DNA of 64,000 nt, from the NCBI RefSeq assembly GCF_046119375.1, contig NW_027362764.1:717774001-717838000 (forward strand), given 5' to 3'. How positions within the stretch are numbered: position 1 is the first letter of the stretch; the number at the start of each line of letters is the position of its first letter. Position numbers and translations under genes: made by a program. Positions 4,391 to 55,345 of this stretch are shown here, piece by piece. Origin of the DNA: Phyllobates terribilis (Eukaryota). The notes beneath the pieces were generated by a model that saw only the letters and a program-made list of their open reading frames with translations, was not told the DNA's origin and searched no databases.

Positions 4391-4536
4391 GTGAGAACTG
4401 TGCGACGTGATGGTCTCGTGGGGGGATTCAAGATCCCCAACTTTATTGACTTCTGACCTGTGCACATAGTGTGTCTAGTTACCTATGTATCCCGGCTGTC
4501 TGCGCACTTGTGTGGTGTCATGGCATTTATTGCCCT

Positions 4537-5510
4537 GTAGGGGGCAGGCTGGTGTCATGGAGCGCCCCATAGGGGGCAGGCTGGTGCGGTGTCATGGAGC
4601 GCCCCGTAGGGGGCAGGCTGGTGCGGTGTCATGGAGCGCCCCGTAGGGGGCAGGCTGGTGCGGTGTCATGGAGCGCCCCGTAGGGGGCTGGCTGGTGCGG
4701 TGTCATGGAGCGCCCCGTGGGGGGCAGGCTGGTGCGGTGTCATGGAGCGCCCCGCGGGGGGCAGGCTGGTGCGGTGTCATGGAGCGCCCCGCGGGGGGCA
4801 GGCTGGTGCGGTGTCATGGAGCGCCCCGCGGGGGGCAGGCTGGTGCGGTGTCATGGAGCGCCCCGCGGGGGGCAGGCTGGTGCGGTGTCATGGAGCGCCC
4901 CGCGGGGGGCAGGCTGGTGCGGTGTCATGGAGCGCCCCGCGGGGGGCAGGCTGGTGCGGTGTCATGGAGCGCCCCGCGGGGGGCAGGCTGGTGCGGTGTC
5001 ATGGAGCGCCCCGCGGGGGGCAGGCTGGTGCGGTGTCATGGAGCGCCCCGCGGGGGGCAGGCTGGTGCGGTGTCATGGAGCGCCCCGCGGGGGGCAGGCT
5101 GGTGCGGTGTCATGGAGCGCCCCGCGGGGGGCTGGCTGGTGCGGTGTCATGGAGCGCCCCGCGGGGGGCTGGCTGGTGCGGTGTCATGGAGCGCCCCGCG
5201 GGGGGCTGGCTGGTGCGGTGTCATGGAGCGCCCCGCGGGGGGCTGGCTGGTGCGGTGTCATGGAGCGCCCCGCGGGGGGCTGGCTGGTGCGGTGTCATGG
5301 AGCGCCCCGCGGGGGGCTGGCTGGTGCGGTGTCATGGAGCGCCCCGCGGGGGGCTGGCTGGTGCGGTGTCATGGAGCGCCCCGCGGGGGGCTGGCTGGTG
5401 CGGTGTCATGGAGCGCCCCGCGGGGGGCTGGCTGGTGCGGTGTCATGGAGCGCCCCGCGGGGGGCTGGCTGGTGCGGTGTCATGGAGCGCCCCGCGGGGG
5501 GCAGGCTGGT
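4537..5510. repeat. 37-bp GC-rich minisatellite, ~26 copies, DCAF13 intron 1
   Basis: Unit GGCAGGCTGGTGCGGTGTCATGGAGCGCCCCGCGGGG; the three overlapping ORFs have a 37-aa period (3 units). Confidence 0.97.
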
Positions 5511-5892
5511 CTACAAGGGAGTGAATATTTCTGTGTGGGACCTGGGTGGTAACAGTATTATTACTGCGGGCAGCATTCGTCTTTGTGCATTAGTTACCAG
5601 GAGCTGTAACTTTTTTGTTTTCCGTCTGTGGGTTTTGGTTTTCGCTGGACGAGTTGTACTTCTGAATGGCGCCGTCCATATTAAAGTATAATGTAGTGAA
5701 GCTCCGAAAAAATCCAAATGGTGAAAAAAAACAATTCCACTGTTTGTTTTGTTTATCTGGCGTTCACTGTGCAGCAATAACCACCTGAATTCAAGTGCGA
5801 CAATAACACATTTTTATATATGTATCTACCCCAAAATGCAAAAAATAAGCCCTCACTCAGCCCCAGATCCCGAAAAAAGAAAACCTTACAGG

Positions 5893-12664: not shown

Positions 12665-13955
12665 CTGGGCCGGCTCCAGGTTTTTGTGGGCCCCGGGCGA
12701 AAGAGTCTCTGTGGGCCCCTTTAATACATACCACGCTTCATGATGCACAGATACAGTAGAGAAATATATATATATAGTACAAGGCCAAAGATTTCACTTC
12801 TTACATTACATGACCAATATCTATTGTAAATTCCACAATAGCTCAGAAACCGGTGAATCGCTCCATACAGAATAATGGCCCCCATAAAATGCTCCATACA
12901 GGATACTGGCCCCCATATTACGCTCTGTACAAGATACTGGCCCCCTTATAATGCTCCATACAGAATACTGGCCCCCTTATAATGTTCCATACAGAATACT
13001 GCCCCCCAAATAATTCTCCATGCAGGATACTGTCCCCCATATTACGCTCTGTACAGGATACTGGCCCCCTTATAATGCTCCATACAGAATACTGGCGCCC
13101 AAATAATGCTCCGTGCAGGATACTGACCCCCATATTACGCTCCGTGCAGGATACTGGCCCCCTTATAATGTTCCATACAGAATACTTGCCCCCGTATAAT
13201 GCTCCATACAGAATACTGACCCCCAAATAATTCTCCATGCAGGATACTGGCCCCCATATTACTCTCTGTACAGGATACTGGCCCCCTTATAATGCTCCAT
13301 ACAGAATACTGTCCCCAAAATAATGCCCCATGCAGGATACTGGCCCCCATATTACGCTCTGTACAGGATACTGGCCCCCTTATAATGCTCCATACAGAAT
13401 ACTGGCCCCAAAATAATGCCCCATGCAGGCTGTCGCCCCCCCCCCACACACACACATAATGCCCCATGCAGGATGTCACCTTCCCCCTTATAATGCCCCA
13501 TGCAGGATGTCACCCCCCCCCCTTATAATGCCCCATGCCGGATGTCATCTCCCCCCCCTTTATAATGCCCCATGCCTCCATATATTAAAAAACAAATACT
13601 CACCTCACTTCTCACCTGCTGCCGCTGCTCCGAACCCCTCACCCGCGCCGGCGTCTTCCCGCTCTGCGCTGCCTGTGACTGCTCAGGAGAGAGCGCAGTA
13701 TAAAGACGTCTCAGGTCAGAGGGTGCGGTGACGTCACCGTGCAGCAGCCGCAGAAGAGACCGAACCTGTTGTGCGGAGGCATGGGGAGAGGTAAGTATTG
13801 TAGTATTGTGCCGGGGCCCTGAGCAAGTGGGGGGGAGCGGGCGCTGGCACTGCACCGCTCACGGGTCTCATAGCACGCAGGGGTCCCCGACAGTGAGTGG
13901 GCCCCTCCGCCTGCTCAGGGCCCCGGCACTTGCCCGGGTGCTGACGCCGGCCCTG
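12665..13955 (-). mobile_element. Second, longer copy of the CAGGGCCGGC hAT-type MITE, opposite orientation, with expanded internal minisatellites
   Basis: Both terminal segments are reverse complements of the ends of the 5893-6649 copy. TSD GTTCAGCC (12657-12664) / GTTCACCC (13956-13963), 7 of 8 match. Alternating ~31-bp repeats at ~12870-13430. Confidence 0.88.
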
Positions 13956-29465: not shown

Positions 29466-32400
29466 GTATGACGTGTGCGCCATGCTTTTTTAACATGAGT
29501 ATACCGTGTGACGTGTGCACAGTATTTGTATGGACTATGCTCTGTGCTTGTGTCATGTGTGCTGTAGCTTTTGATGTGTGCTCTCTGCTTGTGTGATGTG
29601 TTTTTGCTTGCATAATGTAAACATAGTGCTTATGTGATATATACAGTATTTTTGTGTGATGAGTGTGCGGTGCTTGTGTCTCATATGTAATTTGTTTTAT
29701 GTGTATGCATGACGTGCGCATGTGACATGTGAGCTGTGCTTGTGTAATGTGTACTTCTGCGATGTGTGCACTGTGCTTGTATGATATGAGAATATTGAGT
29801 GAAGTGTGCTTTGTGCTTGTCTGATGTGCACTATACTTGTATAAAATGTGTTCTGTGCTTGCATGATGTGTGTTCTGTGCTTTTGTAATGTGAGCATTGT
29901 ATGTTGTGTTTGTGTGATCTGTGCTTAGTGCTTGTCTAGCGTGTTCTCTGTGCTGATATGCCAGTCCAAGGGAGATGAGATGAAAATAAAAATATTTAAA
30001 TAATGAAATACCCCCCCATGTCTTTTACGTGTAAAATTAATTACAAAAAAAAGTAACAGGTAAAAAAATAGAAAAATAAATAAAAATGTCGTTCTCAGTC
30101 CAAATCTCTTTAACCAGCCCTGTTGTGTCTGATATATAAAATACATTTTTACAGAACGGGGAACAAATTTTCAAATGTAATTTAGAAAATCCTTTCTGTT
30201 CATAAAAAATATGGAAAAACAGTCACTTATTTCCCTTATTTTTCCACTGATTTTGCCTGATATCAGCAAAAAAAAAAGAGAAATGAAGCCCCATGTATCA
30301 TGAAAAAGAAGACGCAAAAATTACTTGAATATTCGATAGAGGAAAAATTAACAGCTCTTTAAATTGTATGTGAGAAACACCCAAAAAGGTGCCTGGTCAG
30401 GAACAGGGGTAAATGGCCGGATCTTGAACTAAGGAAAGGGGCTCATACAGAATTCTTGCACAAGGGCCCTTTGTTCTCACTGTCCGCCCTTGATCAGTTG
30501 CTCTGTGTACAGTCCCTGATGTGTCTTATATGCTACAACCCATATTACCCTAAAACCCATAGGACTGGAACTGTATGTGGGCTGTCATGTGGATGATTTC
30601 TACCTGTGTGTGCTCCCTAGAAAATGCAGAGTCTATACTGCATAGATATTCATAATATCGGGCTGGCGCTACATGATGACTTTGTCCGTGACACACTTCC
30701 CACGGGCAAAGATCACGTTACGTTATTGTTAGAACGCACTGTAATGTTGGCGAATGCGGTTCTGCAAACACAACACAAAAGTGGGAAAAAAAATGTTTGG
30801 TGGATTTCTTATCCCCTCCATTATAGCATTCACTTACATTATAGTGCATGGTAGCAGCAGCTACGTGGTCGTGTGACGTGTATTGAGGCTAAAGTCGTGA
30901 AGTCTCATCCTATGTGTTGGTGGCCTGTTTTTCATGGTTATTTTTTCTAGGCTTTTTATACTGTTTTTACTTTGCCAAATATACTGCACACGGATATTTC
31001 TAGGTTGTCCAAACACACTGTTTTCGTTGGGATTGGCCAGGAATCTAATGTGTATGGGGACCGCCTAATTCTTCTGCGACAGATAATATTGAGGGAGAGA
31101 AGGATCTGATCCTTTTGTTCTCCCAAGAGATAAGACGCTGCCAAAGGAGGATGGATGAGGGGACAAATGAATGTAGATGATGGGACATAGGAGTCTGGAG
31201 GGAGGGAGACAGAGAAGTCTGGAGGGAGGGAGACAGAGGAGGCTGGAGGGAGGGAGGGAGAGAGACAGAGGAGGCTGGAGGGAGGGAGAGAGACAGGAGG
31301 CTGGAGGGAGGGAGACAGAGGAGGCTGGAGGGAGGGAGACAGAGGAGGCTGGAGGGAGGGAGACAGATGAGGCTGGAGGGAGGGAGGGAGGGAGAGAGAC
31401 AGGAGGCTGGAGGGAGGGAGACAGAGGAGGAGGGAGGGAGACAGAGGAGGCTGGAGGGAGGGAGACAGAGGAGGCTGGAGGAAGAGAGACAGAGGAGGCT
31501 GGAGGAAGAGAGACAGAGGAGGCTGGAGGAAGAGAGACAGAGGAGGCTGGAGGAAGAGAGACAGAGGAGGCTGGAGGAAGAGAGACAGAGGAGGCTGGAG
31601 GAAGAGAGACAGAGGAGGCTGGAGGAAGAGAGACAGAGGAGGCTGGAGGAAGAGAGACAGAGGAGGCTGGAGGGAGAGACAGAAGAGGCTGGAGGGAGAG
31701 AGACAGACGAGTCTGGAGGGAGGGAGAGAGAGGGGTCTGGAGGGAGGGAGACAGAGGAGTCTGGAGGGAGGGAGACAGAGGAGTCTGGAGGGAAGGAGAC
31801 AGAGGAGTCTGGAGGGAAGGAGACAGAGGAGTCTGGAGGGAAGGAGACAGAGGAGTCTGGAGGGAAGGAGACAGAGGAGTCTGGAGGGAGGGAGACGGGG
31901 GTCTGGAGGGAGGGAGACAGAGGAGGCTGGAGGAAGAGAGACAGAGGAGGCTGGAGGAAGAGAGACAGAGGAGGCTGGAGGAAGAGAGACAGAGGAGGCT
32001 GGAGGAAGAGAGACAGAGGAGGCTGGAGGAAGAGAGACAGAGGAGGCTGGAGGAAGAGAGACAGAGGAGGCTGGAGGAAGAGAGACAGAGGAGGCTGGAG
32101 GGAGAGACAGAAGAGGCTGGAGGGAGAGAGACAGACGAGTCTGGAGGGAGGGAGAGAGAGGGGTCTGGAGGGAGGGAGACAGAGGAGTCTGGAGGGAGGG
32201 AGACAGAGGAGTCTGGAGGGAAGGAGACAGAGGAGTCTGGAGGGAAGGAGACAGAGGAGTCTGGAGGGAAGGAGACAGAGGAGTCTGGAGGGAAGGAGAC
32301 AGAGGAGTCTGGAGGGAGGGAGACAGGGGGGTCTGGAGGGAGGGAGACAGAGAAGTCTGGAGGGAGGGAGACGGGTCTGGAGGGAGGGAGACAGAGGAGT

Positions 32401-32919
32401 CTGGAGGGAGGGAGACAGAGGAGTCTGGAGGGAAGGAGACAGATGTTAGAACCTTGCTGTTAGGTTTTTTTTCCTTTGCTGGTCACATGACCTTGTTGGC
32501 CTATTTAATCCTGCTCCGCCCTTCTGGCTTTGCTGGACTTCATTGTATATCTACTTTCTAGCTAGCCTGTGCTCTGTATCTAGCTCTGTTAGTTTGCTTG
32601 GTCTACGGACCTCTATGTTCTATCTATTTTGTTTGTTCGTCTGTCTGCTACTATTTCTGTTAGGAGGTATCCCATATTCCTCCCAGTCCTTAGTACTTGT
32701 AGGGATTCCCTCCCCACATCTATAGGTCTCCGTACAGACTAGATTAGGACTTTAGCAGGTCTGATCGCAGGATCAGGTTCCCTGTTACATCGTAGGGATT
32801 CAGCTGAGTCCTATAGTAGGGACAGATCTCCTCTCTTTCCTTAGCTTTGGTAGCAGAACATAACAGTAAGTCCAGCCTGCAAATTCTCTAAGGAAAGATT
32901 TTTTTTTTTTTGTTCCATC

Positions 32920-34285: not shown

Positions 34286-37200
34286 GATCCGGAGGATCCT
34301 CTTAGAAGGGGGGGTACTGTTAGAACCTTGCTGTTAGGTTTTTTTTCCTTTGCTGGTCACATGACCTTGTTGGCTTATTTAATCCTGCTCCGCCCTTCTG
34401 GCTTTGCTGGACTTCATTGTATATCTACTTTCTAGCTAGCCTGTGCTCTGTATCTAGCTCTGTTAGTTTGCTTGGTCTACGGACCTCTATGTTCTATCTA
34501 TTTTGTTTGTTCGTCTGTCTGCTACTATTTCTGTTAGGTGTCCCATATTCCTCCCAGTCCTTAGTACTTGTAGGGATTCCCTCCCCACATCTATAGGTCT
34601 CCGTACAGACTAGATTAGGACTTTAGCAGGTCTGATCGCAGGATCAGGTTCCCTGTTACATCGTAGGGATTCAGCTGAGTCCTATAGTAGGGACAGATCT
34701 CCTCTCTTTCCTTAGCTTTGGTAGCAGAACATAACAACAGAGGGGTCTGGAGAGAGGGAGACAGAGGGGTCTGGAGGGAGGGAGACAGAGAGGTCTGGAG
34801 GGAGGGAGACAGAGAAGTCTGGAGGGAAGGAGACAGAGGGGTCTGGAGGGAAGGAGACAGAGGGGTCTGGAGGGAAGGAGACAGAGGGGTCTGGAGGGAA
34901 GGAGACAGAGGGGTCTGGAGGGAGCGAGACAGAGGGGTCTGGAGGGAGCGAGAGAGAGGAGTCTGGAGGGAGCGAGAGAGAGGAGTCTGGAGGGAGCGAG
35001 AGAGAGGAGTCTGGAGGGAGCGAGAGAGAGGAGTCTGGAGGGAGCGAGAGAGAGGAGTCTGGAGGGAGCGAGAGAGAGGAGTCTGGAGGGAGCGAGAGAG
35101 AGGAGTCTGGAGGGAGCGAGAGAGAGGAGTCTGGAGGGAGCGAGAGAGAGGAGTCTGGAGGGAGCGAGAGAGAGGAGTCTGGAGGGAGCGAGAGAGAGGA
35201 GTCTGGAGGGAGCGAGAGAGAGGAGTCTGGAGGGAGCGAGAGAGAGGAGTCTGGAGGGAGCGAGAGAGAGGAGTCTGGAGGGAGCGAGAGAGAGGAGTCT
35301 GGAGGGAGCGAGAGAGAGGAGTCTGGAGGGAGCGAGAGAGAGGAGTCTGGAGGGAGCGAGAGAGAGGAGTCTGGAGGGAGCGAGAGAGAGGAGTCTGGAG
35401 GGAGCGAGAGAGAGGAGTCTGGAGGGAGCGAGAGAGAGGAGTCTGGAGGGAGCGAGAGAGAGGAGTCTGGAGGGAGCGAGAGAGAGGAGTCTGGAGGGAG
35501 CGAGAGAGAGGAGTCTGGAGGGAGCGAGAGAGAGGGGTCTGGAGGGAGCGAGAGAGAGGGGTCTGGAGGGAGCGAGAGAGAGGGGTCTGGAGGGAGCGAG
35601 AGAGAGGAGTCTGGAGGGAGCGAGAGAGAGGGGTCTGGAGGGAGCGAGAGAGAGGGGTCTGGAGGGAGCGAGAGAGAGGGGTCTGGAGGGAGCGAGAGAG
35701 AGGGGTCTGGAGGGAGCGAGAGAGAGGGGTCTGGAGGGAGCGAGAGAGAGGGGTCTGGAGGGAGCGAGAGAGAGGGGTCTGGAGGGAGCGAGAGAGAGGG
35801 GTCTGGAGGGAGCGAGAGAGAGGGGTCTGGAGGGAGCGAGAGAGGGGTCTGGAGGGAGCGAGAGAGAGGGGTCTGGAGGGAGCGAGAGAGAGGGGTCTGG
35901 AGGGAGCGAGAGAGAGGGGTCTGGAGGGAGCGAGAGAGAGGGGTCTGGAGGGAGCGAGAGAGAGGGGTCTGGAGGGAGCGAGACAGAGGGGTCTGGAGGG
36001 AAGGAAACAGAGGGGTCTGGAGGGAGGGAGACAGGGGTCTGGAGGGAAGGAGACAGAGGGGTCTGGAGGGAGGGAGACAGAGGGGTCTGGAGGGAGGGAG
36101 ACAGAGGGGTCTGGAGGGAGGGAGACAGAGGGGTCTGGAGGGAGGGAGACAGAGGGGTCTGGAGGGAGGGAGACAGAGGGGTCTGGAGGGAGGGAGACAG
36201 AAGTCTGGAGGGAGGGAGACAGAGAAGTCTGGAGGGAGGGAGACAGAGAAGTCTGGAGGGAGGGAGAGAGAGGAGTCTGGAGGGAGGGAGACATAGGAGT
36301 CTGGAGGGAAGGAGACAGAGGGTTCTGGAGGGAAGGAGACAGAGGGGTCTAGAGGGAGGGAGACAGAGGAGTCTGGAGGGAGGGAGACAGAGGAGTCTGG
36401 AGGGAGGGAGACAGAGGAGTCTGGAGGGAAGGAGACAGAGGGGTCTGGAGGGAAGGAGACAGAGGGGTCTGGAGGGAAGGAGACAGAGGGGTCTAGAGGG
36501 AGGGAGACAGATGGTACTGGAGGGAGGGAAACAGAGGAGTCTGGAGGGAGGGAGACAGAGGGGTCTGCAGGGAGGGAGACATAGGGGTCTGGAGGAAGGG
36601 GGACAGAGGGTTCTGGAGAGAGGGAGAGAGGGGTCTGGAGGGAGGGAGACAGAGGGGATCTGGAGGGAAGGAGACAGAGGAGTCTGGAAGGAGGGGTCTG
36701 GAGGGAAGGAAACAGAGGGGTCTGGAGGGAGGGAGACAGAGGGGTCTGGAGGGAGGGAGACAGGGGTCTGGAGGGAGGGAGACAGAGGGGTCTGGAGAGA
36801 GGGAGACAGAGGGGTCTGGAGAGAGGGAGACAGAGGGGTCTGGAGGGAGGGAGACAGAGGGGTCTGGAGGGAGGGAGACAGAGGGGTCTGGAGGGAGGGA
36901 GACATAGGAGTCTGACAGCGGTTCTCTTACAGAGTACACTGGTGTGCTGTGTAAGGGAGTCAGGAGAGACAGGTGTATGCAGAAAGATCATTCAACTGAC
37001 AGCTATCTAATATGTATGAGGCTTTACCTCTTTATGATTCCAATGATTCATGTGGTCACAAGTGCTGTACTATACCTCCCAAATATTGAAGAACAGAAAG
37101 ATGGACTAATTATGCGTCGCAACTGAGCTCACCACGGCAAACTTTGGCCATTCCCCTGGCCACACCTTAATTCATGCCCATTTACCATTTCTTTCTTCTC

Positions 37201-41399: not shown

Positions 41400-42540
41400 A
41401 TAGAATAAGTATAATGCACCCCCCATAGTCAGCTATATAGTATAATGAATCCCATAGTCCTCCATATAATATACTGCAAAGCTCAAAATCATCCATGTAG
41501 TATAATGCACAGTCCATAGTCATCCATGAAGTATAGTACACAGCTAATAGTCCTCCATAGTCATCCTATAAAGTATAATGCATAGCCCATAGTCCTCTAT
41601 AAAGTATAATGCACCCCAGAGACATCCATAGTAGTATATTACACCCCACAGACATGCATAGTAGTATAATGCAGCACCATAGACATCCATAGTAGTATAA
41701 TGCACCCCCATAGACATTCATAGTAGTATAATGCACCCCCATAGACATTCATAGTAGTATAATGCACCCCCATAGACATCCTATAAAGTATAATGCATCC
41801 CATAGACATCCATAGTAGTATAATGCATCCCCATAGACATCCATGTTAGTATATTGCATCCCATAGACATCCATGGTAGTATAATGCATCCCTTAGACAT
41901 CCATAGTAGTATAATGCATCCCATAGACATCCATAGTAGTATAATGCACCCCATAGACATCCTATAAAGTATAATGCATCCCCATAGACATCCATAGCAG
42001 TATAATGCACCCCCATAGACATCCTATAAAGTATAAGGCACCCCATAGACATACACAACAGTATAATGTACCCCATAGACATCCATAGCAGTATAATGCA
42101 CTCCCATAGACATCCATAGTAGTATAATGCACCCCCATGGACATCCATAGTAGTATAATGCACCCCATAGACATCCACAGTAGTATAATGCCCCCATAGA
42201 CATCCTATAAAGTATATTGTACCCCATAGACATCCATAGTAGTATAATGCACCCCCATAGACATCTATAGTAGTATAATGCACCCCCATAGACATCCATA
42301 GTAGTATAATGCACCCCATAGACATCCACAGTAGTATAATGCACCCCCATAGACATCCATAGTAGTATAATGCACCACCATAGACATCCTGTAAAGTCTA
42401 ATGCATCCCCATAGACATCCATAGTAGTATAATGCATCCCATAGACATCCATAGTAGTATAATGCATCCCATAGACATCCATAATAGTATAATGCATCCC
42501 ATAGACATCCACAGTAGTATAATGCATCCCCATAGACATA
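41400..42540. repeat. 30/31-bp satellite CATAGACATCCATAGTAGTATAATGCACCCC, left part
   Basis: Direct reading; the array resumes at 46214. Confidence 0.95.
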
Positions 42541-42736
42541 CAGTACAGACCAAAAGTTTGGACACACCTTCTCATTTAAAGATTTTTCTGTATTTTCATG
42601 ACTTTGAAATTTGTACATTCACACTGAAGGCATCAAAACTATGAAAACACATGTGGAAAAAAAAGTGTGAAACATCTGAAAATATGTCTTATATTCTAGG
42701 TTCTTCAAAGTAGCCACCTTTTGCTTTGATGACTGC
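42541..42736. mobile_element. Tc1-like terminal fragment
   Basis: TA|CAGTACAGACCAAAAGTTTGGACACACC, a typical Tc1 TIR start; truncated against an LTR fragment. Confidence 0.8.
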
Positions 42737-45700
42737 CCGGGCAGTACTCCTTCCTTACCTGAGAGTGAGATACCACACCTCTGGGTGAGATGCAGTACCT
42801 CTGTGGCGACTGAACCCTCAGGGGCGCCACATGCCCTCCTGGTAAAACACAGCATGGCCGCGGGCTGGAACAGAGTAAAACACGGTTTTAGACATACAAT
42901 TTTTAGAATGCATTCTCATATAAGATCATAAACAAACTTTTTCTTCCCTTTATGGGAGGCTCTTTTTCTTAAACGTAACAGGTTACTATATAGCTTATAA
43001 AACATTATAAAACTTTTTTCAATACAATTTTCTTCACATTTATAAAACACTTTTTTGTTTTTTTTTAATAAAACACATCTTTCAACTCAACACAGTGAGA
43101 TCCATAACCGGGTGTCCATCTCACTGGAGAAGGTGCAATTTGAGCAACATGAGGGACCCGTCTGAAAACCCTCAACGTAGGCCCTGGGCGTGGCTGCAGG
43201 GCATAGATGATGCAGTCGCAGGACCACGTCTTTGGCCACGCCAAACGGGTTTTTGTTCTGCGGTCTATTTATATAAAACCAATAAGAGGCTCTTTAATAA
43301 CTGCAAACTATTTACAGGTAAAGTTTTTGGCTGCTCACAGTCCTCAGCCTACAAGTTCTGGTACCCTCACCGGGTAACTGGGTAACACACACATAACCTT
43401 TTTTTTTCTGTTCACACAAACAATGCTATACCCTTCCGGGTAACTATTTACAGTTCAGTTCCACATACTGCACTTAGTAGTGGTGCTCCCTCCTGGGAAA
43501 CACCTGGTTGCTGCAGGCTGACCCAGCCGGGTCATCAGCCTTGAACTGCGGGGGCATGTTCTTTCCCTCCTCCACTACTCGGTACACCTGGAGAGCATAC
43601 CACCCGCGCTCTCCCTTGTGTCGGGTAAAGGTGACACCGGGGTAGAGGTCTCTGCCGGGATGTCCCCGTTGAAGATGGGGTTCATCGTCCCGCCTATTCA
43701 CAAAGACGTCCCGGTCCATCTGCGGCTCTCTGATGAAGCCCCATCCGGTTTCCAGGTCGAACTTCACCACTATCCCCTCCAGACGGGGACTGGATGTGGC
43801 AGATCTTGTCTTGCGGGCCTGGGTTTTGGCCGCCATGTTCCGGGCCTCCATCTGCTCCCAACGCACCTGCTGGTTGTACCGCTCCTTCTCTAACTGTAGG
43901 AGCTACTGCCTGCAATGCTTCTCTCTCCTGAGGGCCTGGGTCTGGGTCTCCCATGGGAACCCCATGAGGTTCCCCTCCCGGTTGTCCCACCGAAACTCCT
44001 CTGCTCCTTGGCAGGCAACCGGGGGTGCAGGTGTAGGTGTTAGAGGGAGTCCCTGCTGATCCTCGAACTTGGCGCACCAGTCATAGACGGGGCTTCCGTA
44101 CACCCACTCGGTGGCTCTGGTAGGGGGCCTAGGAGCAGGTCGGTGGAGCAGGCACCCGGGATCGGAGGCTCTGCCAGGGGGCCCAGGAGCAGGTCGACGG
44201 AGTAGGCACCCGGGATCAGAGGCTCTGCCAGGGGGCCCAGGAGCAGGTCAGCACTCTCAGCACCCAGGACAGGGAGACTCCTCTTACCTGCTCCCGCGGC
44301 CGCTTCTGTGCTGCTCTCTGCCTCCTGGCTCAATTAAGGCTCCTCCGGGGCTGGGGCAGTGGTGGAATGCAATGCTGGCTGCTGCCGGGTCACGATCTTT
44401 CCCAGCAGCTCCTCCTTCCAGCTAGCGATGGCATCCTGCTGGGCCCTCTCCATCCTCCGGCCTAGCTCTTGGACCTCGGCGCGGAGGAACTCCGTGTCCT
44501 CCAGGGATAGTTTGGAGATCGCCTCCTCCAGGGTGAGGGGCATCTCGGGTTGCTGCAGGCCACGGACGGGAGCTCGGTCCTGATTCCTCTCCATGCTGCC
44601 TGCCGGGTGCGGTCTGTCTAGACTGCTGGAGACTCCTTCCTGTCTCCCAGGTTTCTTCTCTCCTCTCCCCTTTCGGGGGCGGTTCCATGGCAGCTTGCTG
44701 TTGGCCACACCTAAGGACGGCCCCCCCATCTTGATGGACACATCTACATACATGGCCACTGCTGCTCGGGGCAGGCCCCGCTTTTGGCGCCATTCTGGAA
44801 CCCGGCCCACGATGGGAGGTGGTTTCTTGTTGTCTTTGGTGTCGCACATAATGGCACCCGTTCTTCTTGGGCGGGCGCCACATTCAGTATACAACAGTCT
44901 CTAGGCGCACAATACTCGGTGATAACGGGTGGGTTCATATCCTGTTCGTGACGCCAAATATGACGCGCCCCCTGGGCCGTGGGGTACTCGGTGCCGGGCC
45001 GGTCGTTGCTAGGGGAGATGTCGCAGTGGCGGTGACCCGGTCCGTGACCCAGGGTGGTCAATAAAAGGGGATATTTACAGGGGAATTAAAGTTCCTATAT
45101 AAAGTTTGTGATGCCACCTGTGGTATGCGGCTAAAGGGAGCCGCAGCTGAAGAGCAGGTCCTCTGGAGCTGTTGTTAATGCAACAGAGTTGGTTCAGCTC
45201 TCCACAGGCAGAGCTTAGCTCCGGGGCAGTGTAGATGTTGTTGATATTGAGGTAGCACTCGTGGTGCAGTGTAGTGCAGGGGATGATGGCGCAGCAGTAA
45301 TAATTCACAGAGACAGTGGGGATGCAGTCTTCTGGATTAACTCACTGTTCTCACTTTGCTCCTGGTTACAACTGCAGATCATAACTTCCCACGTCATGCT
45401 GCGTTCACCGGGCTGGGGTTCAGCCAACCCTCAGGTACCTCCGGAGTACATAACGGGACCCCCTTCTGTGTGTTCCTTCTAGCAGTCTCCCTGCACCTCA
45501 CACCCAGTGTCCCAAGCCAGTGACCACGGACCTTGTCGGGCGACGTCTTCTCTGTCCCCTGAGTCCTCTATGGCCACCTTTTCGGTGAGTTAGATGTAGC
45601 TTTTGGGCTGCAACACCTGAAATGCTGCACCCTCCGGTTACCTAGTTGAATATTGTAATTCTCACTAGTTAGGGGCTGGTCCCCTCTGCGACCTGATCCC

Positions 45701-46213
45701 TCCACCGCCTGGTAGATTCGGGCGTACGGGTGGCCTCCAGCACTGCCCGTACCCCTGGGAGCCTTTCTTCACTCCTGGAGCCTTCTCTCTGCTCCCATTC
45801 CTTCCTCCTTCTCTGCTTCTCCTGGGCCTCCTCACTCAGGCCCGCGCTTCCGCTGAGCAGAGCTCCTGCAGAGCTCCTGCTCCCAATTCTTCCTCTGACT
45901 CTCTCTCCTCAGACTTCACTCACTCTAGAATGTTCCACCCTCTCTTTTATATCGCTTCTTACTGAGCTCCCCTGAACTTCTTCCTCCACCCACACCCACT
46001 ACATGGTTCCCCCTAATTTGATTCCCCCCACTCCAGCCAGGGACAGGGCTCAGCAGGAGAGCGACGCATCTTGCCCCTCCTGCTGGTCTGGAGTAGTGTA
46101 GTGTTGGATGCAGGTGTTAGGGTCCCGGGCAGTACTCCTTCCTTACCTGAGATACCACACCTCTGGGTGAGATGCAGTACCTCTGTGGCGACTGTACCCT
46201 CAGGGGCGCCACA
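42737..46213 (-). mobile_element. Non-autonomous LTR retroelement (no pol) with a cold-shock-domain ORF
   Basis: 5' LTR 46213-44961 (TGTGGCGCCCC...GCGCGTCA; TATAAAA at 45951-45945); PBS 44956-44939; ~2.1-kb interior; purine tract then a truncated 3' LTR at 42832-42737 matching the first ~90 bp of the 5' LTR. Confidence 0.88.
43474..44849 (-). pseudogene. Disrupted ~458-codon ORF: putative coiled coil, 18-aa Pro-rich repeats and a C-terminal cold-shock domain (43576-43782)
   Basis: ATG 44849; stops at 44334-44336 and 43903-43905; inferred frameshift near 44110-44130. The C-terminus LEGIVVKFDLETGWGFIREPQMDRDVFVN...LYPGVTFTRHKGERGWYALQV aligns by eye to CspA/YBX RNP1 and RNP2. Confidence 0.78.
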
Positions 46214-46995: not shown

Positions 46996-48187
46996 CCAAT
47001 GATTTTTAAAATAAATGAATATATACTCACCACTCCTTTGTTCTCGCACCAGGCGCATCCTCTTGTGGCACCAGCAGGGCTCAGCATGCGACGGGAGCCT
47101 GTTACATCACTGTCATGCGCCTCGCCACATGCGCATGACGTCATCTGCTGGCCTCTGATTGGCCGGCAGCATGTATTGTGGTGCACGGATCCGAGTGCTG
47201 CATTACATTTCAGCTATATGTAGCTTCAGCTACACTTCCAGCTAAAACTTTTGCAGACGTCGGCGGGCCCCGGCCCTCACCCGTCAGGCCCCTGACTCGC
47301 CGGTCCCGGTCGCTGCAGCGACCGCAGTCGTTATGCCCATGAGTCCAGTGCTGCCTTTGTTGACAGGTTGCAGGTGTGACATCATGACTACAGTGCTTGT
47401 GACTGCTGAGGTCTAATGCCAACTCCATAAAAGCAGCAAACCATCTCTTAGACTGGAGTAAGATTTGCGGCGTAAGGAATGCCACCGCTCATCATGAATT
47501 TGACGAACGTGGGCGCTATGCCCTGCCATGCCCCTGTCCCTCCCCAGCTCAAATTGCCTTTAAATGTGCTGTGACAAAGTCACTGGGAGCGTGTTGGAAG
47601 AGAGATATGTGTCACTGAGGCTGTTAGCCTCAGTGATGTGAAAACATGGAAATTTCTCCTGCACATTAAGTGCAGAGTGGGTTAACGGCCTAGGTTTACA
47701 AGGGAATGGTTTTTAGAGGATGATGAAGTGCAGGGCAGGACGTCATCCATAATATCTCCAATCCAGGGAGTGCTCTGGGCTTTAAATAGCCAGGCTTGAC
47801 ACTCAGGTGTGGTCAGTGTCTGGAAAAACCTGCTCCTGAGACGAGCTCGCATGTGCTGTGCTGAACCGTGAGCGACTAACCCTGAGTGGCCGAACGCTGG
47901 CCGATATACGGACTGTGCTGCAACTTTGGTATTTTGTTTTGCCTTTATGTCAAAAGGGCTGTGTTTTCTTTATGGACTCCAGGTTAGTTTATGATGTTTA
48001 ATAAACTAACCCAAAATTTAAAGAGACAGTGTTACTTGTCTACCTACGTATACAATCATGCAAGTCACTTTACCACAAGTGATGGAGGATGCGGGCAAAA
48101 CTCCCAGAGAACACGTGTGACTGTTACAAGAAGTGCTGCATGTCCTGGGTGAAGTCGGCCGTAAGCCAGCAAGTGACTCCGGACAAA

Positions 48188-49140
48188 ATGGAGGACCTGC
48201 TTAAGCATCTGTTGCAGGCACAGCTGGCGCAGCAAACGCAGCACCAGCAGCAACTACAGCAACAGCAGGTGCAGTACCGGCAGCAGCACCTGCAGAGCCA
48301 GCAGAGCATGGAGCAGCAGCATCGGGAGCAGCAGCAGGAGACAAATAAACTTCTGATGCAGAAGATCCAACAGCAGCAAAGACAGATGGAACTCCTAGCA
48401 GAGTAGATCCGAGGCAGGACAAGCACCCCACCCCCAAATCCAGGTGATGACTCACACGTCAGGAAGATGGTAAGAAGAGCATTACAAAAGATGACCCCGG
48501 GGGATGACATTGAGACGTTCCTGACTATGTTTGAAAGGGTGGCGGAGTGGGAGAGATTACCCCCGGAGCAGTGGGCAGAGGTTCTGGCACCATATTTAAT
48601 AGGGGAGCCACAGAAGGTCTACTATGACCTGGCGTTGCAAGACGCAAAAGAGTATGCAATGTTAAAAACTGAAATTTTGGCACGCTTGGGGGTAACAATG
48701 TCTGTCAGGGCACAGCGCGTCCACCGCTGGGCATATCACTGCTAGAAACCTTCACCCAGCTCCCAAATGTTTGACTTACTGCACCTGGTTCAAAAATGGT
48801 TGCAGCCTGAGTCCTCTACACCTGTGCAGATGGTAGAGCAAGTGGTTATGGACCGGTTCGTACATTCCCTGCCAAGGCCAATACAGGCTTGGGTTGCCCA
48901 GGGTGATCCCCGGGATGCTGATGAACTGGTGGCTCTGGTTGATAGGTATCAGGGGGCCGAGGGTTCCATGGGAAGGCAGCCTACTCCGTACTGGGGAACT
49001 CACCAGGGGGTGGAGTCCCAAAAAGGGGTGAGGCATCCAAGGTCCAAAGGAGTGGGGAAGGCAATGCCCAAGGTCCCTATGGGTTATATTATATTCTGGA
49101 GGTGTCATGGCCCAGGCCACGTGGCTGCCCGTTGACCCCT
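48188..49140 (+). pseudogene. Gmr1-like Gag with a poly-Gln N-terminus and a SCAN-like capsid C-terminal domain
   Basis: MEDLLKHLLQAQLAQQTQHQQQLQQQQ...; DDIETFLTMFERVA...WAEVLAPYLIGE; KWLQPE...EQVVMDRFVHSLP...WV...ELVALVDRY; in-frame stops. Confidence 0.82.
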
Positions 49141-52100
49141 GACCACAGAGCAGATGGACTGTAGCCTGGGACGCCAGTGCTCTTACTATGCCTACCCAAC
49201 CTGCAGTGTTGACTATCAGCCCAGCGAGGAGCCACTGACATGTCCTGTGACCGTAAATGGAGTACTGGTGGCAGGACTTTTGGACTCAGGGAGTTTGGTG
49301 ACTCTGATAAGGGCCACACTCCCTCACCAGTTGATCCCCGGGAAATAAATATACACAGTAACTGTGGTGTTGAGTCCCATGAGGTCGGGGTGGTTAAGGA
49401 TCTGCTCCACCCGATAATAATAGGGCGGGACTTCAGCCTGTTCTGGGACTTGTGGCAGAAAACCGGGGGTACCATGTGTCTCCAACAGGAGCAGATTATA
49501 CCATGAAGCATCACAGTCGCACTCAGAGGCAGATGAGTTCCCCCTGTGTGTCCTTGCTGATGACGAGGATGAGACAATGACCCCAGAGGCCGAGATTCTA
49601 GATTTGGGGGAGTCTGGGGGGAACTTTGGTACTGCGCGAATGCAGGATCTGACCTTGAAGTATGCTATTGATAATGTATCTGTAATCAATGGGGTTGCTC
49701 AAGAGCTGGGGCTGACACCAAGTACCCATATTTTACGCTCAATGGGGAACTTCTTTATCGGGTCACTAAGCCAAAAGGGGAGGTGATAGAGCAGTTGGTG
49801 GTACTGGGACCCTATAGACTTAGGGTATTAGACTTGGCCCATTCTCACATCTTGGGTCGGCATCTAGGGGTCAACAAAACTTAGGAGCAGGTCCTGCAGA
49901 GGTTCTACTGGCCAGGATGTCACCATGAAATTGTGAATTACTGCCAGTCCTGTCCCACCTGTCAGCTAACGACTCCCGTGTCCCATTTCCGCAGCCCCCT
50001 AGTACCGCTAGCTATCATAGACCTTGTCGGGCCCCTGGTGAAGTCTGCCTGGGGCACCAATACATCCTCGTAGTATTGGACTATGCCACTCGGTATCCGG
50101 AAGCGGTACCATTGAGAAATTCCTCTGCCAGAAGTATCGCTAGGGAGCTGGTGCATATTTTCTCCTGGACGGGTTTGCCAAAGGAGATCCTGATGAGCCA
50201 GGGAACTCCTTTTACGTCGAAGATGATGAGGGAGTTGTGTAAGGCTCCTCAAATTACACAACTCTGGACGTTTGTATACCATCCGTAGACGGACGGACTG
50301 GTAGAGCGATTCAACAAGACCTTAAAGTCAATGTTGAAGAAGGTCGTGGAGAAGGATGGATGAGATTGGGATTGCCTACTGCCGAACCTGCTGTTCTCCA
50401 TTAGGGAAGTTCCCCAGAGCTCTACGGGGTTCTCACCATTTGCGCTGCTTTACGGATGACCCTCGGGGACTTCTGGACATAGTGAAGGAGACCTGGGAAA
50501 TAGAGGTTACACCCCACCGGAACATCATTGAGCATGTGGCCCAGATGCAGGACCGGATAGAGAGGGTGATGCCCATTGTGAAAGAGAGCCTTCTACAGGC
50601 TCAAAATGCCCACGCGAGGGTCTACAATCGGGCCGCAAGGCTGAGACAATTCAACCCGGGAGACCATGTGTTGGTGTTAGTACCCATGGTCGAGAGCAAG
50701 TTTCTGGCTAAATCGCAAGGGCCGTACGAGGTGGTTGAGAAGCTGAGTGAAGTTAATTACAAAGTCCAACAGCCGGGTAGAAGAAAGTCGTACTAGATCT
50801 ACCACATTAACTTGCTTAAGCCGTGGTGGGACACGGAACAGGTGGAAGCTACGTATCTAGGGGCCAATCCTGAAACCATTATCGAGGACGTCACAGTGGC
50901 AGAGACATTATCACCGGTCCAAAAACAACACTGCAAAGAGCTCCTGCAGAGAAACCGAGAGCTGTTCTCAGAATTGCCCGGATGTACGCACATTGTGGAG
51001 CATGAGATCCTGACGGACCGCACGTACGGGTGAACCAGAGGCCGTATCGAATTCCTGAAGCCTGCCGTGAGGTGATCTCCAAGGAGGTGAGGAGAAGGTG
51101 AAGCCTGGGTGTTATTGAGGAGTCTAAGAGCGGCTGGTCCAGCCTGATTGTTCTTGTACCCAAGCTGGACAGAGAATGGAGTTTCTGTAATGATTACAGG
51201 AAGCTAAACAACGTGTCCAAGTTTGACGCCTACCCGATGCCCCGGGTCGATGAGCTTATTGAGAGGCTGGGGCCTGCCAGGTACATCAGTACCCTGGACC
51301 TAACAAAAAGGGTACTGCAAATTTGCCTGGCCCCAGGTACCAAGGCGAAAACAGCCTTCTCTACACCTGATGGGTGTTTTCAATACACCCAGATGCCGTT
51401 CGGACTACAGGGAGCCCCAGCTTACCTTCCAGAGGGCTATGGACCGGATTCTGGGCTCACATAAGAAATACGCTACCGTTTACCTGGACGACCTCGTAAT
51501 TTTCTGCCCAGTTTAAGGAACTCACCTGCAGAAGGTCTAGGCAGTACTGGATGCATTGAGAAATGCCGAGTTTACCATAAACCCAAGAAAATGCGCCAAA
51601 GGAAAGGAAACGGCGAAATACTTGGGCTACGTGGTTGGAAGGGGCAAAATAAAACCGCAAATGAACAAGGTGGAGGCAATCCAGAATTGCCCTCAACCGG
51701 TCTCCAAGAAACAGGTATGGGCATTTCTGGGAATCGTGGGGTATTTATCCCAAGTTTTGCCACAATAGTGGCACCCCTGACCGACCTACTTAGAGGTACG
51801 AAGACGGCGATGGCTAAATGGTCTTCTGAGGCAAATATAGCATTCCAGGAGCTGAAAAGCACCCTATGTAACCTCCCGGTCTTGATAGCACCTGACTTCT
51901 GTAAAGAGTTTGTGCTCCAGACGAACGCCTCAGACGTCGGCATTCGAGCCGTCTTATCGCAGGAGGTAAATGGGGAGGAACACCCCATTCTGTACCTGAG
52001 CAGAACACTCTCGCCTGCGAAAAGAACTATGCAATTGTGGAAAATGAGTGCCTGGCCATCAAGTGGGCGGTTGACACCCTTAGGTACTACCTGTTGGGCC

Positions 52101-52792
52101 GCAAATTCAGACTGGCCTCAGACCATGCCCCCCTGAGATGGATGGGAAAAAAATGGTGACCAGGGGGTTACTGGCCCTCCAGGACTTTAGTTTTTTGGTG
52201 GAGCACAGGCCCGGGAAACTGCATGCTAATGCCAATGCCCTGTCCAGACTTCCCTGTCTAACGAGTGATGGTGCCAAAACCCCCGGCCTTGGGCAGAGGG
52301 GGGGCATATGTGACAAAGTCACTGGCAGCATGTCAGAAGGGAGATATGTGTCACTGAGGCTGTTAGCCTCAGTGATGTGAAAACCTGGAAGTTTCTCCTG
52401 CACATTAAGTGCAGAGAGGGTTAACAGCCTAGGTTTACAAGAGAATGGTTTTTAGTGGATGACGAAGTGCAGGGCGGGATGTCATCAACAATATCTCCAA
52501 TCTAGGGATTGCTCTGGGCTTTAAATAGCCAGCCTTGAAACTCAGGTGTGGTCACTGCCTGGAAAAAACCTGCTCCAGAGAGGAGCTCGTATGTGCTGTG
52601 CTGAACCGAGAGCGACTAACCCTTTGTGGCCGGACGCTGGCCGATATATGGACTGTGCTGCAACTTTGGTATTTTGTTTTACCTTTATTCCGAATGGGCT
52701 GTGTTTTCTTTATGGACTCAAGGTTAGTTTATGATGTTTAATAAACTAACGCAAAATTTAAAGACACAGTGTTACTTGTCTACCTCCGCATA

Positions 52793-53844
52793 TGACGCGC
52801 CCCCGGGGCAATGGGGTACTCGGCAGCCGGGCCTATGGATGCTGGGGGGGATATGTCACAGTGGCTGGCCCAGTCCGTTGCCCAGGGCGGTCAACCAAAA
52901 AGGGGATTGTAACTTGGATAGAGATAAAAATAAAGTAAATAGTTTGTGACTCCACCTGTGGTACCTGGTAAGGTTTACCAGCGCTGCTGTAGACCTCCGG
53001 GGGGTGATGGGAAGGCCGCTGAGGTGTTTCTGCTCCCCACAGGTGGAGCGGGCCCCCGGGGCAGTGTGGAGTTTGGTGGGTGGTGATGCTGGAACTTGTA
53101 GTGCAGGCGGCATGGCGCAGCAGGAGTAATTGACAGAGACAGGGGATTCGCTTCAATACCTTTACTGGTGCGGATATCAGGTACGGTCCAGGGTACTCAG
53201 TAGGATGGGTGCACTTCAGGACTTCTCCCCAGTGAGCGGGTATAAGGCCTCCTGGTCCGTGTCTGCCTCTCTGTATGCTCCTGGCCAGCCTGCAACTGGG
53301 CCTAGCTTATGTGTCATGATGTTCCTTCACCTGTCGCTTGGTAGTGGGACCTTCTGCTGGCAACCACTATCCCTGGTCGCCGGGGCCTTCGTGGTTCCTG
53401 GTCCTGTAATGGGTCTAGCTTCAGGTCTACCAGGGACTTGTAGTCCTCCTGGAATGCTGGTGGTCCCTACTGGGTATAAAGGACCCTGTAGGCGCGGACT
53501 CTGTGTCCGGTTTGTATCTTCGGGGTGAGCCTATGATGCTCCTCTGCCCCTTTCAATTCCTCTCTCCTCTCCTCCTTGCCGTAGGCCACACTCGGGGCCC
53601 TCAGAACTCAGCAGCAGACGTGCTGCGTCTTCGCTGCTCTCAGCGTCAGCACACTCTCAGACTCTCTGACTCTACAACTGACTGACTGCCTAGCTCCACC
53701 CTCCATATATATATCCCTAAGGGGCTCCCTCTGCTGGTATGAGGTGGAATGGTGGAGGTGTTTGCATGTAGTGAGGGCCTCTTGTGGAGAAGTCCATCCA
53801 TGCACCCTGGGTCCTGTGGTACCTGTGAACAGCAGGGTTCCACA
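52793..53844 (-). mobile_element. Solo LTR (1052 bp) related to the LTR of the cold-shock-domain element, inserted into the Gmr1 3' LTR
   Basis: Plus-strand start TGACGCGCCCCC.GGG...TGGGGTACTCGG matches 44961 onward; ends ...GGGTTCCACA; perfect 4-bp TSD CATA (52789-52792, 53845-53848). Confidence 0.88.
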
Positions 53845-55345
53845 CATACAGCCAAGCAAGTCGCTTTATCACAGTGTGTAATAGAGGAATCATGACCGTT
53901 CTTCTTATCCTAGTGAAAAGAGGCCAGCATACCCTTACATGATTGTCCAAGCTCTTTTTGACTTTCTGGTTGTGTTCGTAGAGAAGTTTTGGAAAGGTCA
54001 AAGAATGACCGACCAATGTGTGAAATAAAAAAAAGCTCGACCATCTCAATGTTCTGCTAATGTCTTATGTAAACTATTCCCTACCAATTCAACTTCTCCC
54101 ACTGTTTTTACATTTATAGTTGTGTATTTTTTCATGAACTCAGATTAACTTTTTTGTTCAGAATAGTCACTATTTTTTCAGACATAAAAATCTTTTCTAC
54201 TAAATAATTGGATCAAATTGCCCTTTTTCCCAAAAAATGTTTTATAATAATTTGACATATGTCTTGCATTTGTGGCCTAACACTTTGCAATGTTCATACT
54301 CATATGGTAGAAGCAAAGCTGAACTTTGGGATCCTGAAAAACGCAGCAAAAAAACGCTGCAAAAATGCAGCAAGAAAAACAGCAAAAAAGCCAGCAAAAC
54401 CTGCTTTTTGTCTGCAGATTTTTGCTGGCAAGAAATCAGGTTTTGGCTGCAGAAAAAAGCACCAAAAAAGCAGAGGGTGAACATAGCCTTATATTGCTTT
54501 TCCGCATTGGAAATAACAGTTTCGATTTGTGTGCGCTTTTCATTGTAGTCAGTATATCTAATTGCATGAAGTAAGTGGGAGGTATAGTGTCTCAGGACAC
54601 CTCTCCTGCGCATTGTACTCTGTCCTGTCTCCTATGTCCATTGTTAGGATGTTATAGGGCACAAATCTCAATTCCTGTGATATTCCCCTTCCCCCCCATA
54701 GGACAGAGCTGGGCTCTGAAATATTAGACATGTGAGCACGAGGCATTCTTACGTAATTGGATTATATCCGTTTGATGTATTATATATTATTCTCACCAGT
54801 AGCAGGGACTCTTTCTTATTATATGCGTATGGTGACCTTTTCTACCCCCCCCTTAAGCTATTACAAAACTTTCCGCTGCCACTTGTTATTCCTCGGCTTG
54901 TGGTGACGTGCCCTGCGATGTAATTTAAGCACATGAAATTGGAATACAATTAACACAAATACATAAGAAACATCCATGAGTGCACTGATATGGTCACAAA
55001 CGTGAATTTACAAATCACCTTTTGTTCAATCTGAAAGTTATACTCGGAGCTTTCTTAGCGTATGTTCACACAGAAAAATGGATGGAAAATTTGTAGTCCG
55101 CATAGTATTGACAGCAGGACAATTTAAGCTGCGGATTTCACCTTTTTCGGCCCATAGGTAGAATTAGTGTCAAATCTGCAGTAAAATCCCAAATAAATCC
55201 ACACGAAAGTGATATGGATTTTGGAACAGATTTTTTGGACACGTTCATAATAAAGAGCAGAGGTGGTAAGGAAAAGAAAAAATATCATAACCTAAATCTA
55301 CCTATCAGTCTTAGGGCTTGTTGTTCCACACTTTATCTAATTTAA

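Follow-up and report, generated by a model that had tools for sequence, protein, structure and literature searches.

The element at positions 42,737 to 46,213 of the window (a stretch of 64,000 nucleotides from Phyllobates terribilis, contig NW_027362764.1, positions 717,774,001 to 717,838,000) is a copy, on the minus strand, of an LTR retrotransposon family without pol, referred to here as the passenger, the single gene of which encodes a protein ending in a divergent cold-shock domain (CSD). This copy is dead, with a broken open reading frame (ORF) and a 3′ LTR that is cut off. The best explanation for the whole, given a probability of about 0.55, is that the passenger is copied by a Gypsy element acting as helper, and that its selected CSD protein likely binds RNA of the passenger itself, aiding entry into the particle.

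All features given with coordinates lie on the minus strand. The 5′ LTR (44961..46213) extends over 1253 bp from TG to CA, with a TATA-like motif at 45951 and a U5, its last ~270 bp, that is common to passenger and helper Gypsy and contains at 45104..45117 a second, primer-site-like motif whose type tracks that of the real primer site. Four spacer bases separate the LTR end from the 18-nt primer binding site (44939..44956), which is complementary to host tRNA-Ser(CGA) and consists of TGG followed by the reverse complement of the tRNA gene's 3′ terminus, the identity of this tRNA being an ARAGORN call at one of four host loci scanned. The single ORF (43474..44849) starts with the ATG at 44849 and ends at 43474, its frame interrupted by stops at 44336-44334 and 43905-43903 and, between them, by a frameshift near 44110. 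From N- to C-terminus it is laid out as a basic N-terminus, a helix, a Pro-rich disordered region, a long charged helix (43807..43940; predicted, with pLDDT 89-96 when modelled from a related copy in the genome), the CSD of the long-loop type (43579..43779; Pfam profile PF00313) and a short tail. Further downstream are a 3′ non-coding block that is also present in the helper at 74-76% identity (43093..43349), the polypurine tract region (42832..42847) and a 3′ LTR stub of ~96 bp (42736..42831) with 93% identity to the start of the 5′ LTR. The stub adjoins the end of a Tc1 DNA transposon (42521..42735), and because this end cuts the second LTR short, the window copy has no checkable target duplication. 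The LTR, the primer site, the start codon, the two stops with the frameshift, the purine tract and the start of a second LTR are thus all borne out as the first-pass annotation of this DNA had described them. A 31-bp satellite surrounds the element, and a helper-type LTR, apparently solitary and 90% identical to that of locus L101, is located elsewhere in the window (52793..53850).

Searching the DNA of the 10.6-Gb host genome with the CSD region as query yielded 4,289 first-look candidates, and the 40 that were scored showed 88-92% identity, the window itself apart. The order of leader, ORF and CSD was the same in 38 of 38 fetched copies, the complete ones measuring ~4.55 kb within a family range of 4.5-5 kb. 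A pol probe, validated by its detection of Gypsy pol, matched at 3 of these 38 loci, each time outside the element, and found no pol between the LTRs, in agreement with the earlier reading of the window copy. Old copies with both ends preserved (n=20) displayed perfect 4-bp target duplications in 11 cases and duplications with one mismatch in 5; the K2P distance between the LTRs of old passenger copies was 0.033-0.078, and a near-full open frame was retained in 2 of the 38 copies of the window-type set. A query with a Ranitomeya relative led to divergent subfamilies, 38-62% identical to a window-type protein, with LTR pairs 3.1-3.4 kb apart at 6 of 20 loci. The CSD recurs across copies and subfamilies and is not a one-off insertion; the original proposal of a non-autonomous LTR family in which a genuine CSD was multiplied holds.

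A Pfam CSD search of the host genome (33,380 candidates, 150 scored) exposed a young subfamily of 4.8-5.0 kb, in which 15 of 16 copies featured an LTR pair with 99.4-100% identity and 4-bp duplications, and all 16, picked by Pfam score and hence biased to open frames, had uninterrupted reading frames 694-816 codons long. Among young passenger copies sampled in order of position, 10 of 17 were open across the ~420 codons covered. Internal deletions have removed the CSD from three of these 17, and their differing break points fit a loss in the last copying round; L251, one of the three, sits inside a target duplication. The primer site of the young subfamily differs from the old one and finds its complement in host tRNA-Ser(AGA) and (TGA) genes. 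The young junction of LTR and primer site occurs exactly 36,371 times in the host genome (reversed control, 0), and the first 30 junctions on contig 1 comprised 17 of passenger type, 11 of gag type and 2 others. Taking 17/30 of the junctions suggests roughly 20,000 young passengers, or ~1% of the 10.6-Gb genome, a crude figure extrapolated from the end of a single chromosome. Exact matches to the old junctions numbered 570 and 538, both of them minimum values given the mutations in old copies, and the total of passenger copies is likely in the tens of thousands.

The CSD of the window copy matched PF00313 at 43779-43579 with E=4.5e-5 and 23.7 bits, under the cut-off of 27 bits, which was passed by two of five natural open old copies and by a young copy (37.8 bits), and 47 of 49 copies gave a profile match at E<=0.001, confirming the C-terminal CSD that had been read from the letters. 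The loop after FV measures 23 residues in all 49 aligned copies, so the length of 21 that the first-pass annotation read is private to the window copy. AlphaFold2 arranged the strands of the CSD in a five-stranded OB barrel with moderate model confidence, and its long loop between strands 3 and 4 is one residue longer than that of YB-1. In the model of the whole protein (mean pLDDT 47) the chain is largely disordered apart from two long helices and the barrel at its C-terminus; the helix and CSD part alone reached a pLDDT of 76, with 89-96 in the helix and weak last strands. All 11 Foldseek hits at E<=0.001 were cold-shock proteins, YB-1 scoring 2.5e-4 and CspA 7.0e-4, and the top match in the profile search, YBX1, was barely ahead of CspA (E 1.3e-6 vs 2.7e-6). 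An ESM Atlas search with P0001 returned a best score of 0.80 and is regarded as a source of leads only.

The residues by which YB-1 contacts nucleic acid, as given in the available text of the source (PMC7498358), were used as reference for the element CSD. F74 of RNP1 is retained in 47 of 49 copies and D83 and F85 of RNP2 in 49 of 49, and an aromatic residue is kept at position 72, where W replaces Y72 in 48 of 49. Just one of the 49 copies has W65 and none has H87, indicating a remodelled binding face, and near-fixed new arginines and aromatics are present, among them two arginines (RR) that follow RNP2 and a pair of aromatic residues in the final strand. Judged by sequence, the element CSDs are a distinct cold-shock domain family with a remodelled binding face. 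The passenger protein is probably made and able to bind single-stranded nucleic acid.

Membership of the Y-box proteins entails a CSD nearly identical to that of YBX1 and grouping with Y-box domains. The element CSDs share 25-30% identity with Y-box proteins and form a clade of 21 rows (support 95/83) apart from the Y-box-like rows and from host CSDE1, in a tree of 54 rows and 69 columns that includes just three Y-box-like rows and has a backbone without resolution. The passenger protein is consequently not a Y-box protein, and host CSDE1 was dismissed as donor since its domains occupy a separate branch. The former description of the CSD as a host Y-box type survives only in the hair's breadth by which YBX1 leads CspA, and gives way in the tree to a clade of its own. 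No Y-box or Lin28 locus was among the 30 loci from the genome-wide Pfam CSD search. The signature of the element CSD was also found in 4 further proteins. Relatives are present in gene models of Phyllobates, Ranitomeya and Anomaloglossus, some of them fused to neighbouring host genes by annotation. Word-based protein searches returned named relatives solely in poison frogs, a result that does not bound the range of the family since gene annotation masks repeats.

Selection was assessed by pairwise codon counts among natural copies (12 DNA rows, P0001 left out). Between subfamilies the CSD had a pS of 0.71-0.76, a pN of 0.15-0.22 and a dN/dS of 0.07-0.15, so that the dN/dS check recommended at the outset speaks for purifying selection, and on these codon counts the CSD is under strong constraint. 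Between divergent copies dN/dS was 0.17-0.23 in the helix region and 0.5-0.6 in the N-terminal part; pN/pS amounted to 0.12 (0.06-0.19) among young subfamilies and 0.34 inside the window's own subfamily. A Ranitomeya protein exhibited ~70% identity over the CSD vs 34% over the full alignment. With copies picked for their open frames and synonymous sites close to saturated, the effect size is rough and the direction of selection clear.

The helper, typically 7.8-8.1 kb in length, has the same primer site as the passenger and another interior, encoding a PNMA-like Gag with one CCHC knuckle, followed by PR-RT-RNase H-integrase. This gene order without env is that of Gypsy/Ty3, and the clade is presumably the one named Barthez. 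No further ORF of at least 300 codons was found inside the helper LTRs. All four coding parts were present in 10 of 14 fetched young helper loci, which measured 7.4-8.1 kb with LTRs 98.2-99.9% identical, and old helper LTR pairs at three loci were 93-96% identical, placing them in the age class of the window's subfamily. A CSD match was obtained in 0 of the 14 young helper loci and in 1 of 20 old ones, L116, which is a hybrid; the CSD ORF was on this basis rejected as an env-like third gene of a complete element.

Helper and passenger have in common the start and end motifs of the LTR, the U5, the start of the leader, the 3′ block (74-76%) and the purine tract, and the primer tRNA was switched in parallel in both. 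Comparison of four copies per group revealed that U5 identity sorts by era and not by element type, with 0.74 between old passenger and old helper, 0.70 between the young partners, 0.58-0.61 across eras and 0.59 between old and young passengers. The LTR middle is unrelated between the partners (0.50-0.52 vs 0.49 for shuffled sequence), and the U3 is private to the passenger. Several loci combine parts of both elements. In L251 a single CTTA duplication encloses a helper 5′ LTR joined to the interior and 3′ LTR of a passenger, L255 and L256 link a passenger U3 to a helper U5 and leader, and in L258 a CSD segment is flanked by helper parts. The structure of L251 is what would be expected if plus-strand transfer, an established retroviral mechanism, had taken place between two RNAs packaged together. 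The hybrids could alternatively have arisen via recombination after insertion, the chance of a 4-bp match being 1 in 256 per case. The shared signals, the tRNA switch and the hybrids together make it highly probable that the passenger is co-packaged and copied by the Gag-Pol of the helper. This partnership is old, given the relatives in Ranitomeya and Anomaloglossus.

In the proposed cycle, the passenger would be transcribed from its own U3 and its reverse transcription would be primed by host tRNA-Ser, after which the Gag-Pol of the helper would, with the same high probability, package, copy and integrate the passenger RNA. The CSD protein may act mainly on its own messenger, which it would protect or chaperone and thereby help to a larger share of the helper particles. 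The odds of such a cis preference are about even; it is favoured because a protein dispensable for copying stays selected most easily if the encoding RNA benefits. Points that stand against the overall explanation include the remodelled binding face, the loss of the CSD in 3 of 17 young copies, which speaks against a strict requirement in cis, the alternative origin of the hybrids after insertion, and a U5 just 70-74% alike between helper and passenger.

Other roles for the protein have to be weighed. A captured host fragment carried as neutral cargo would account for most old copies being broken, with a near-full open frame in 2 of 38, and is hardly credible in view of the CSD dN/dS of 0.07-0.15 between subfamilies, the young copies with open frames and the ~70% CSD identity to the Ranitomeya protein against 34% over the full alignment; unless alignment artefacts underlie them, the selection data refute it. 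It is also very improbable that the protein is a degenerate Gag that helps to build particles with the CSD in place of nucleocapsid, a substitution the first-pass annotation had envisaged. The ORF does begin at the usual start position of gag and two long helices are predicted, but no Gag, PNMA or CCHC Pfam hit was found in 6 natural passenger ORFs, hhalign of the passenger ORF with the helper Gag gave a probability of 1.2%, and no capsid fold appears in the AlphaFold2 model, most of which has pLDDT <50 outside the helices and the CSD. The ORF was rejected as a Gag on these results, and the helper Gag having a zinc knuckle of its own, the substitution for nucleocapsid was abandoned as well.

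Host Y-box proteins package maternal mRNA in the germline. A CSD protein acting in trans could be a shared accessory factor useful to both partners, shielding their RNA for example from repression by piRNA, tRNA fragments or Y-box proteins. This reading is possible, if doubtful: the two elements expanded side by side and changed primer tRNA in parallel, passengers stand at 17 vs 11 helpers among the 30 sampled without having displaced them, and the partnership is old, with relatives in Ranitomeya and Anomaloglossus, yet a freely shared product is weakly protected by selection whereas the constraint is strong, and the helper already encodes everything a Gypsy needs. A wider and likewise speculative picture is that of a two-part retrotransposon, in which one RNA would bring Gag-Pol and the other a CSD protein shielding or delivering the two of them in the germline of the frog, the partners having co-evolved since before the dendrobatid-aromobatid split, swapped U5 and primer tRNA together and helped to inflate poison-frog genomes. 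It is unlikely that the CSD instead binds ssDNA or nascent RNA at the U3 or leader of the passenger and boosts transcription or translation of the family. Against such a self-activator, the protein lacks the Y-box residues W65 and H87; in its favour, the N-terminus is basic (21 K/R in 105 residues), the benefit would stay in the family owing to the passenger-private U3, and ssDNA is bound by the CSD of YB-1 according to the available text (PMC7498358).

The preferred reading stays that of a passenger copied by the helper, with a CSD protein that likely serves its own RNA. As regards its expression, none of the sequencing runs recorded as RNA holds the window stretch. Four runs from one study, which are RNA only by guess, have contigs that span the window element and, at few differences, the young ORF and that leave a flank almost uncovered, a pattern that shallow DNA would also produce and that is no evidence either way on expression.

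Non-autonomous retroelements usually lose genes, and the passenger, which keeps one non-Gag gene under strong selection and borrows the rest, is a clean case for asking what an accessory protein can do for a parasite of a parasite. Being abundant and recent, it is also relevant to the question of the great genome size of poison frogs. Gypsy elements are reported to account for at least 1 Gb in one poison-frog genome and to be expressed in ova in the available text of one study (PMC6278860), and the terms 'cold shock' and 'non-autonomous' have 0 occurrences in the main text of two poison-frog genome papers (PMC6278860, PMC11152451). The search of the freely accessible literature found no paper on a mass-amplified, selected passenger with a CSD only, and a catalogue entry in Repbase or Dfam may exist.

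The initial statement that no vertebrate LTR family of such architecture is known stands insofar as the search of accessible papers found none, and has to be qualified by the capture of CSDs in bird endogenous retroviruses (ERVs), 46 of which were classified by RT in the accessible part of the source (PMC12287698). Those CSDs occupy varying positions, derive from several captures and have host-like scores, with E 1e-14 to 1e-26 among the pfam00313 matches listed in its Supplementary Table 6; no claim of amplification or selection was seen in that part of the text (PMC12287698). Bird ERVs and the passenger are alike as vertebrate LTR elements holding a Pfam CSD. The former carry a retroviral RT, whereas the passenger is without pol and has a Gypsy as partner, and its CSD, unlike theirs, is divergent, part of the sole gene, fixed in place, selected and massively amplified. 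Among LTR elements without pol, 1A11, xretpos and lambda-olt 2-1 of Xenopus laevis have an ORF of their own and are transcribed in the early embryo, the 1A11 protein being described as Gag-like and the copies numbering tens to hundreds, and neither a CSD nor pairing with a helper was seen for them in the available portion of the paper (PMC4585706). Early-embryo transcription is likewise documented, in the text available, for the zebrafish LTR element BHIKHARI, filed as ERV1 (PMC9341512).

At the level of the domain, the passenger CSD resembles YBX1 and YBX2 (PDB 6ktc, 5ytt, 7f3l) in its five-stranded barrel, the long loop between strands 3 and 4 and F74/D83/F85, and differs from them in the loss of W65 and H87, RR after RNP2, the aromatic pair on the last strand and its C-terminal position after a long helix.

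At the level of the element, the likeness is to plant pairs, in which an element without pol reaches high copy number via its partner and exchanges LTR parts with it. Rice Dasheng and barley BARE2 are non-autonomous members of such autonomous/non-autonomous pairs, and the plant pairs are not known to carry a cold-shock domain. The soybean SNRE/SARE pair, with LTR swapping between its non-autonomous and autonomous partners, is said to have been described by Du et al. in 2010. Plant partners without pol and with LTR exchange are also on record in the available text of a further source (PMC4079214). Set against these plant pairs, the new part in the passenger is selection on an RNA-binding cargo protein.

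Within U5, approximately 160 nt upstream of the LTR end, a second primer-site-like motif was located at 45104-45117 on the minus strand of the window, and it also occurs at loci with LTR-primer junctions. The motif was absent from 21 of the 105 junctions inspected, and in every one of the 84 junctions having it (37 Ser-CGA and 47 Ser-AGA/TGA) its type was identical to that of the real primer site. It could offer tRNA another place to anneal, or act as a decoy for tRNA fragments.

Internal deletions have eliminated most or all of the CSD in the young passenger copies L204, L208/L251, L215 and L221/L253, with different break points in each. L249 (G000:C1:8971987-8981986) is a young gag-only derivative of the helper that arose by deletion and measures 3.8 kb, with an LTR pair identity of 99.6%, and the window itself bears an apparently solitary helper-type LTR at 52793-53850 on the minus strand, 90% identical to L101.

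Passenger or helper copies recur every 50-100 kb at G000:C3:689.8-691.7 Mb and C1:1087.7-1090.5 Mb of the host genome, a periodicity pointing to large tandem segmental duplications. The passenger ORF is also joined to other genes in the public poison-frog gene models P0002, P0004, P0005 and P0100, the partners being R3HCC1, a vomeronasal receptor, a protein of the MIF4G type and a nuclease that is Harbinger-like by its Pfam labels; these fusions represent either annotation artefacts or exonisation. Separately, the tandem intronless CSDE1/UNR-like copies L123-L128 (G000:C1:734.44 Mb) are probably processed pseudogenes.

Elsewhere in the window, 24-, 37- and 31-bp units are repeated in tandem (31200-32600, 35000-37000, 4400-5600 and 12740-13500), the arrays of the 24-bp unit having a strong purine skew. 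The window also contains the right end of a Tc1 transposon (42521-42735); a more complete relative, which includes a transposase ORF, lies at L048 769-2405. A decayed Gypsy element lies on the plus strand at 47570-52567, flanked by 259-bp LTRs that are 92% alike; its Gag is Gln-rich and integrase-like text precedes RT-like text, and it resembles the Gmr1/SCAN type.
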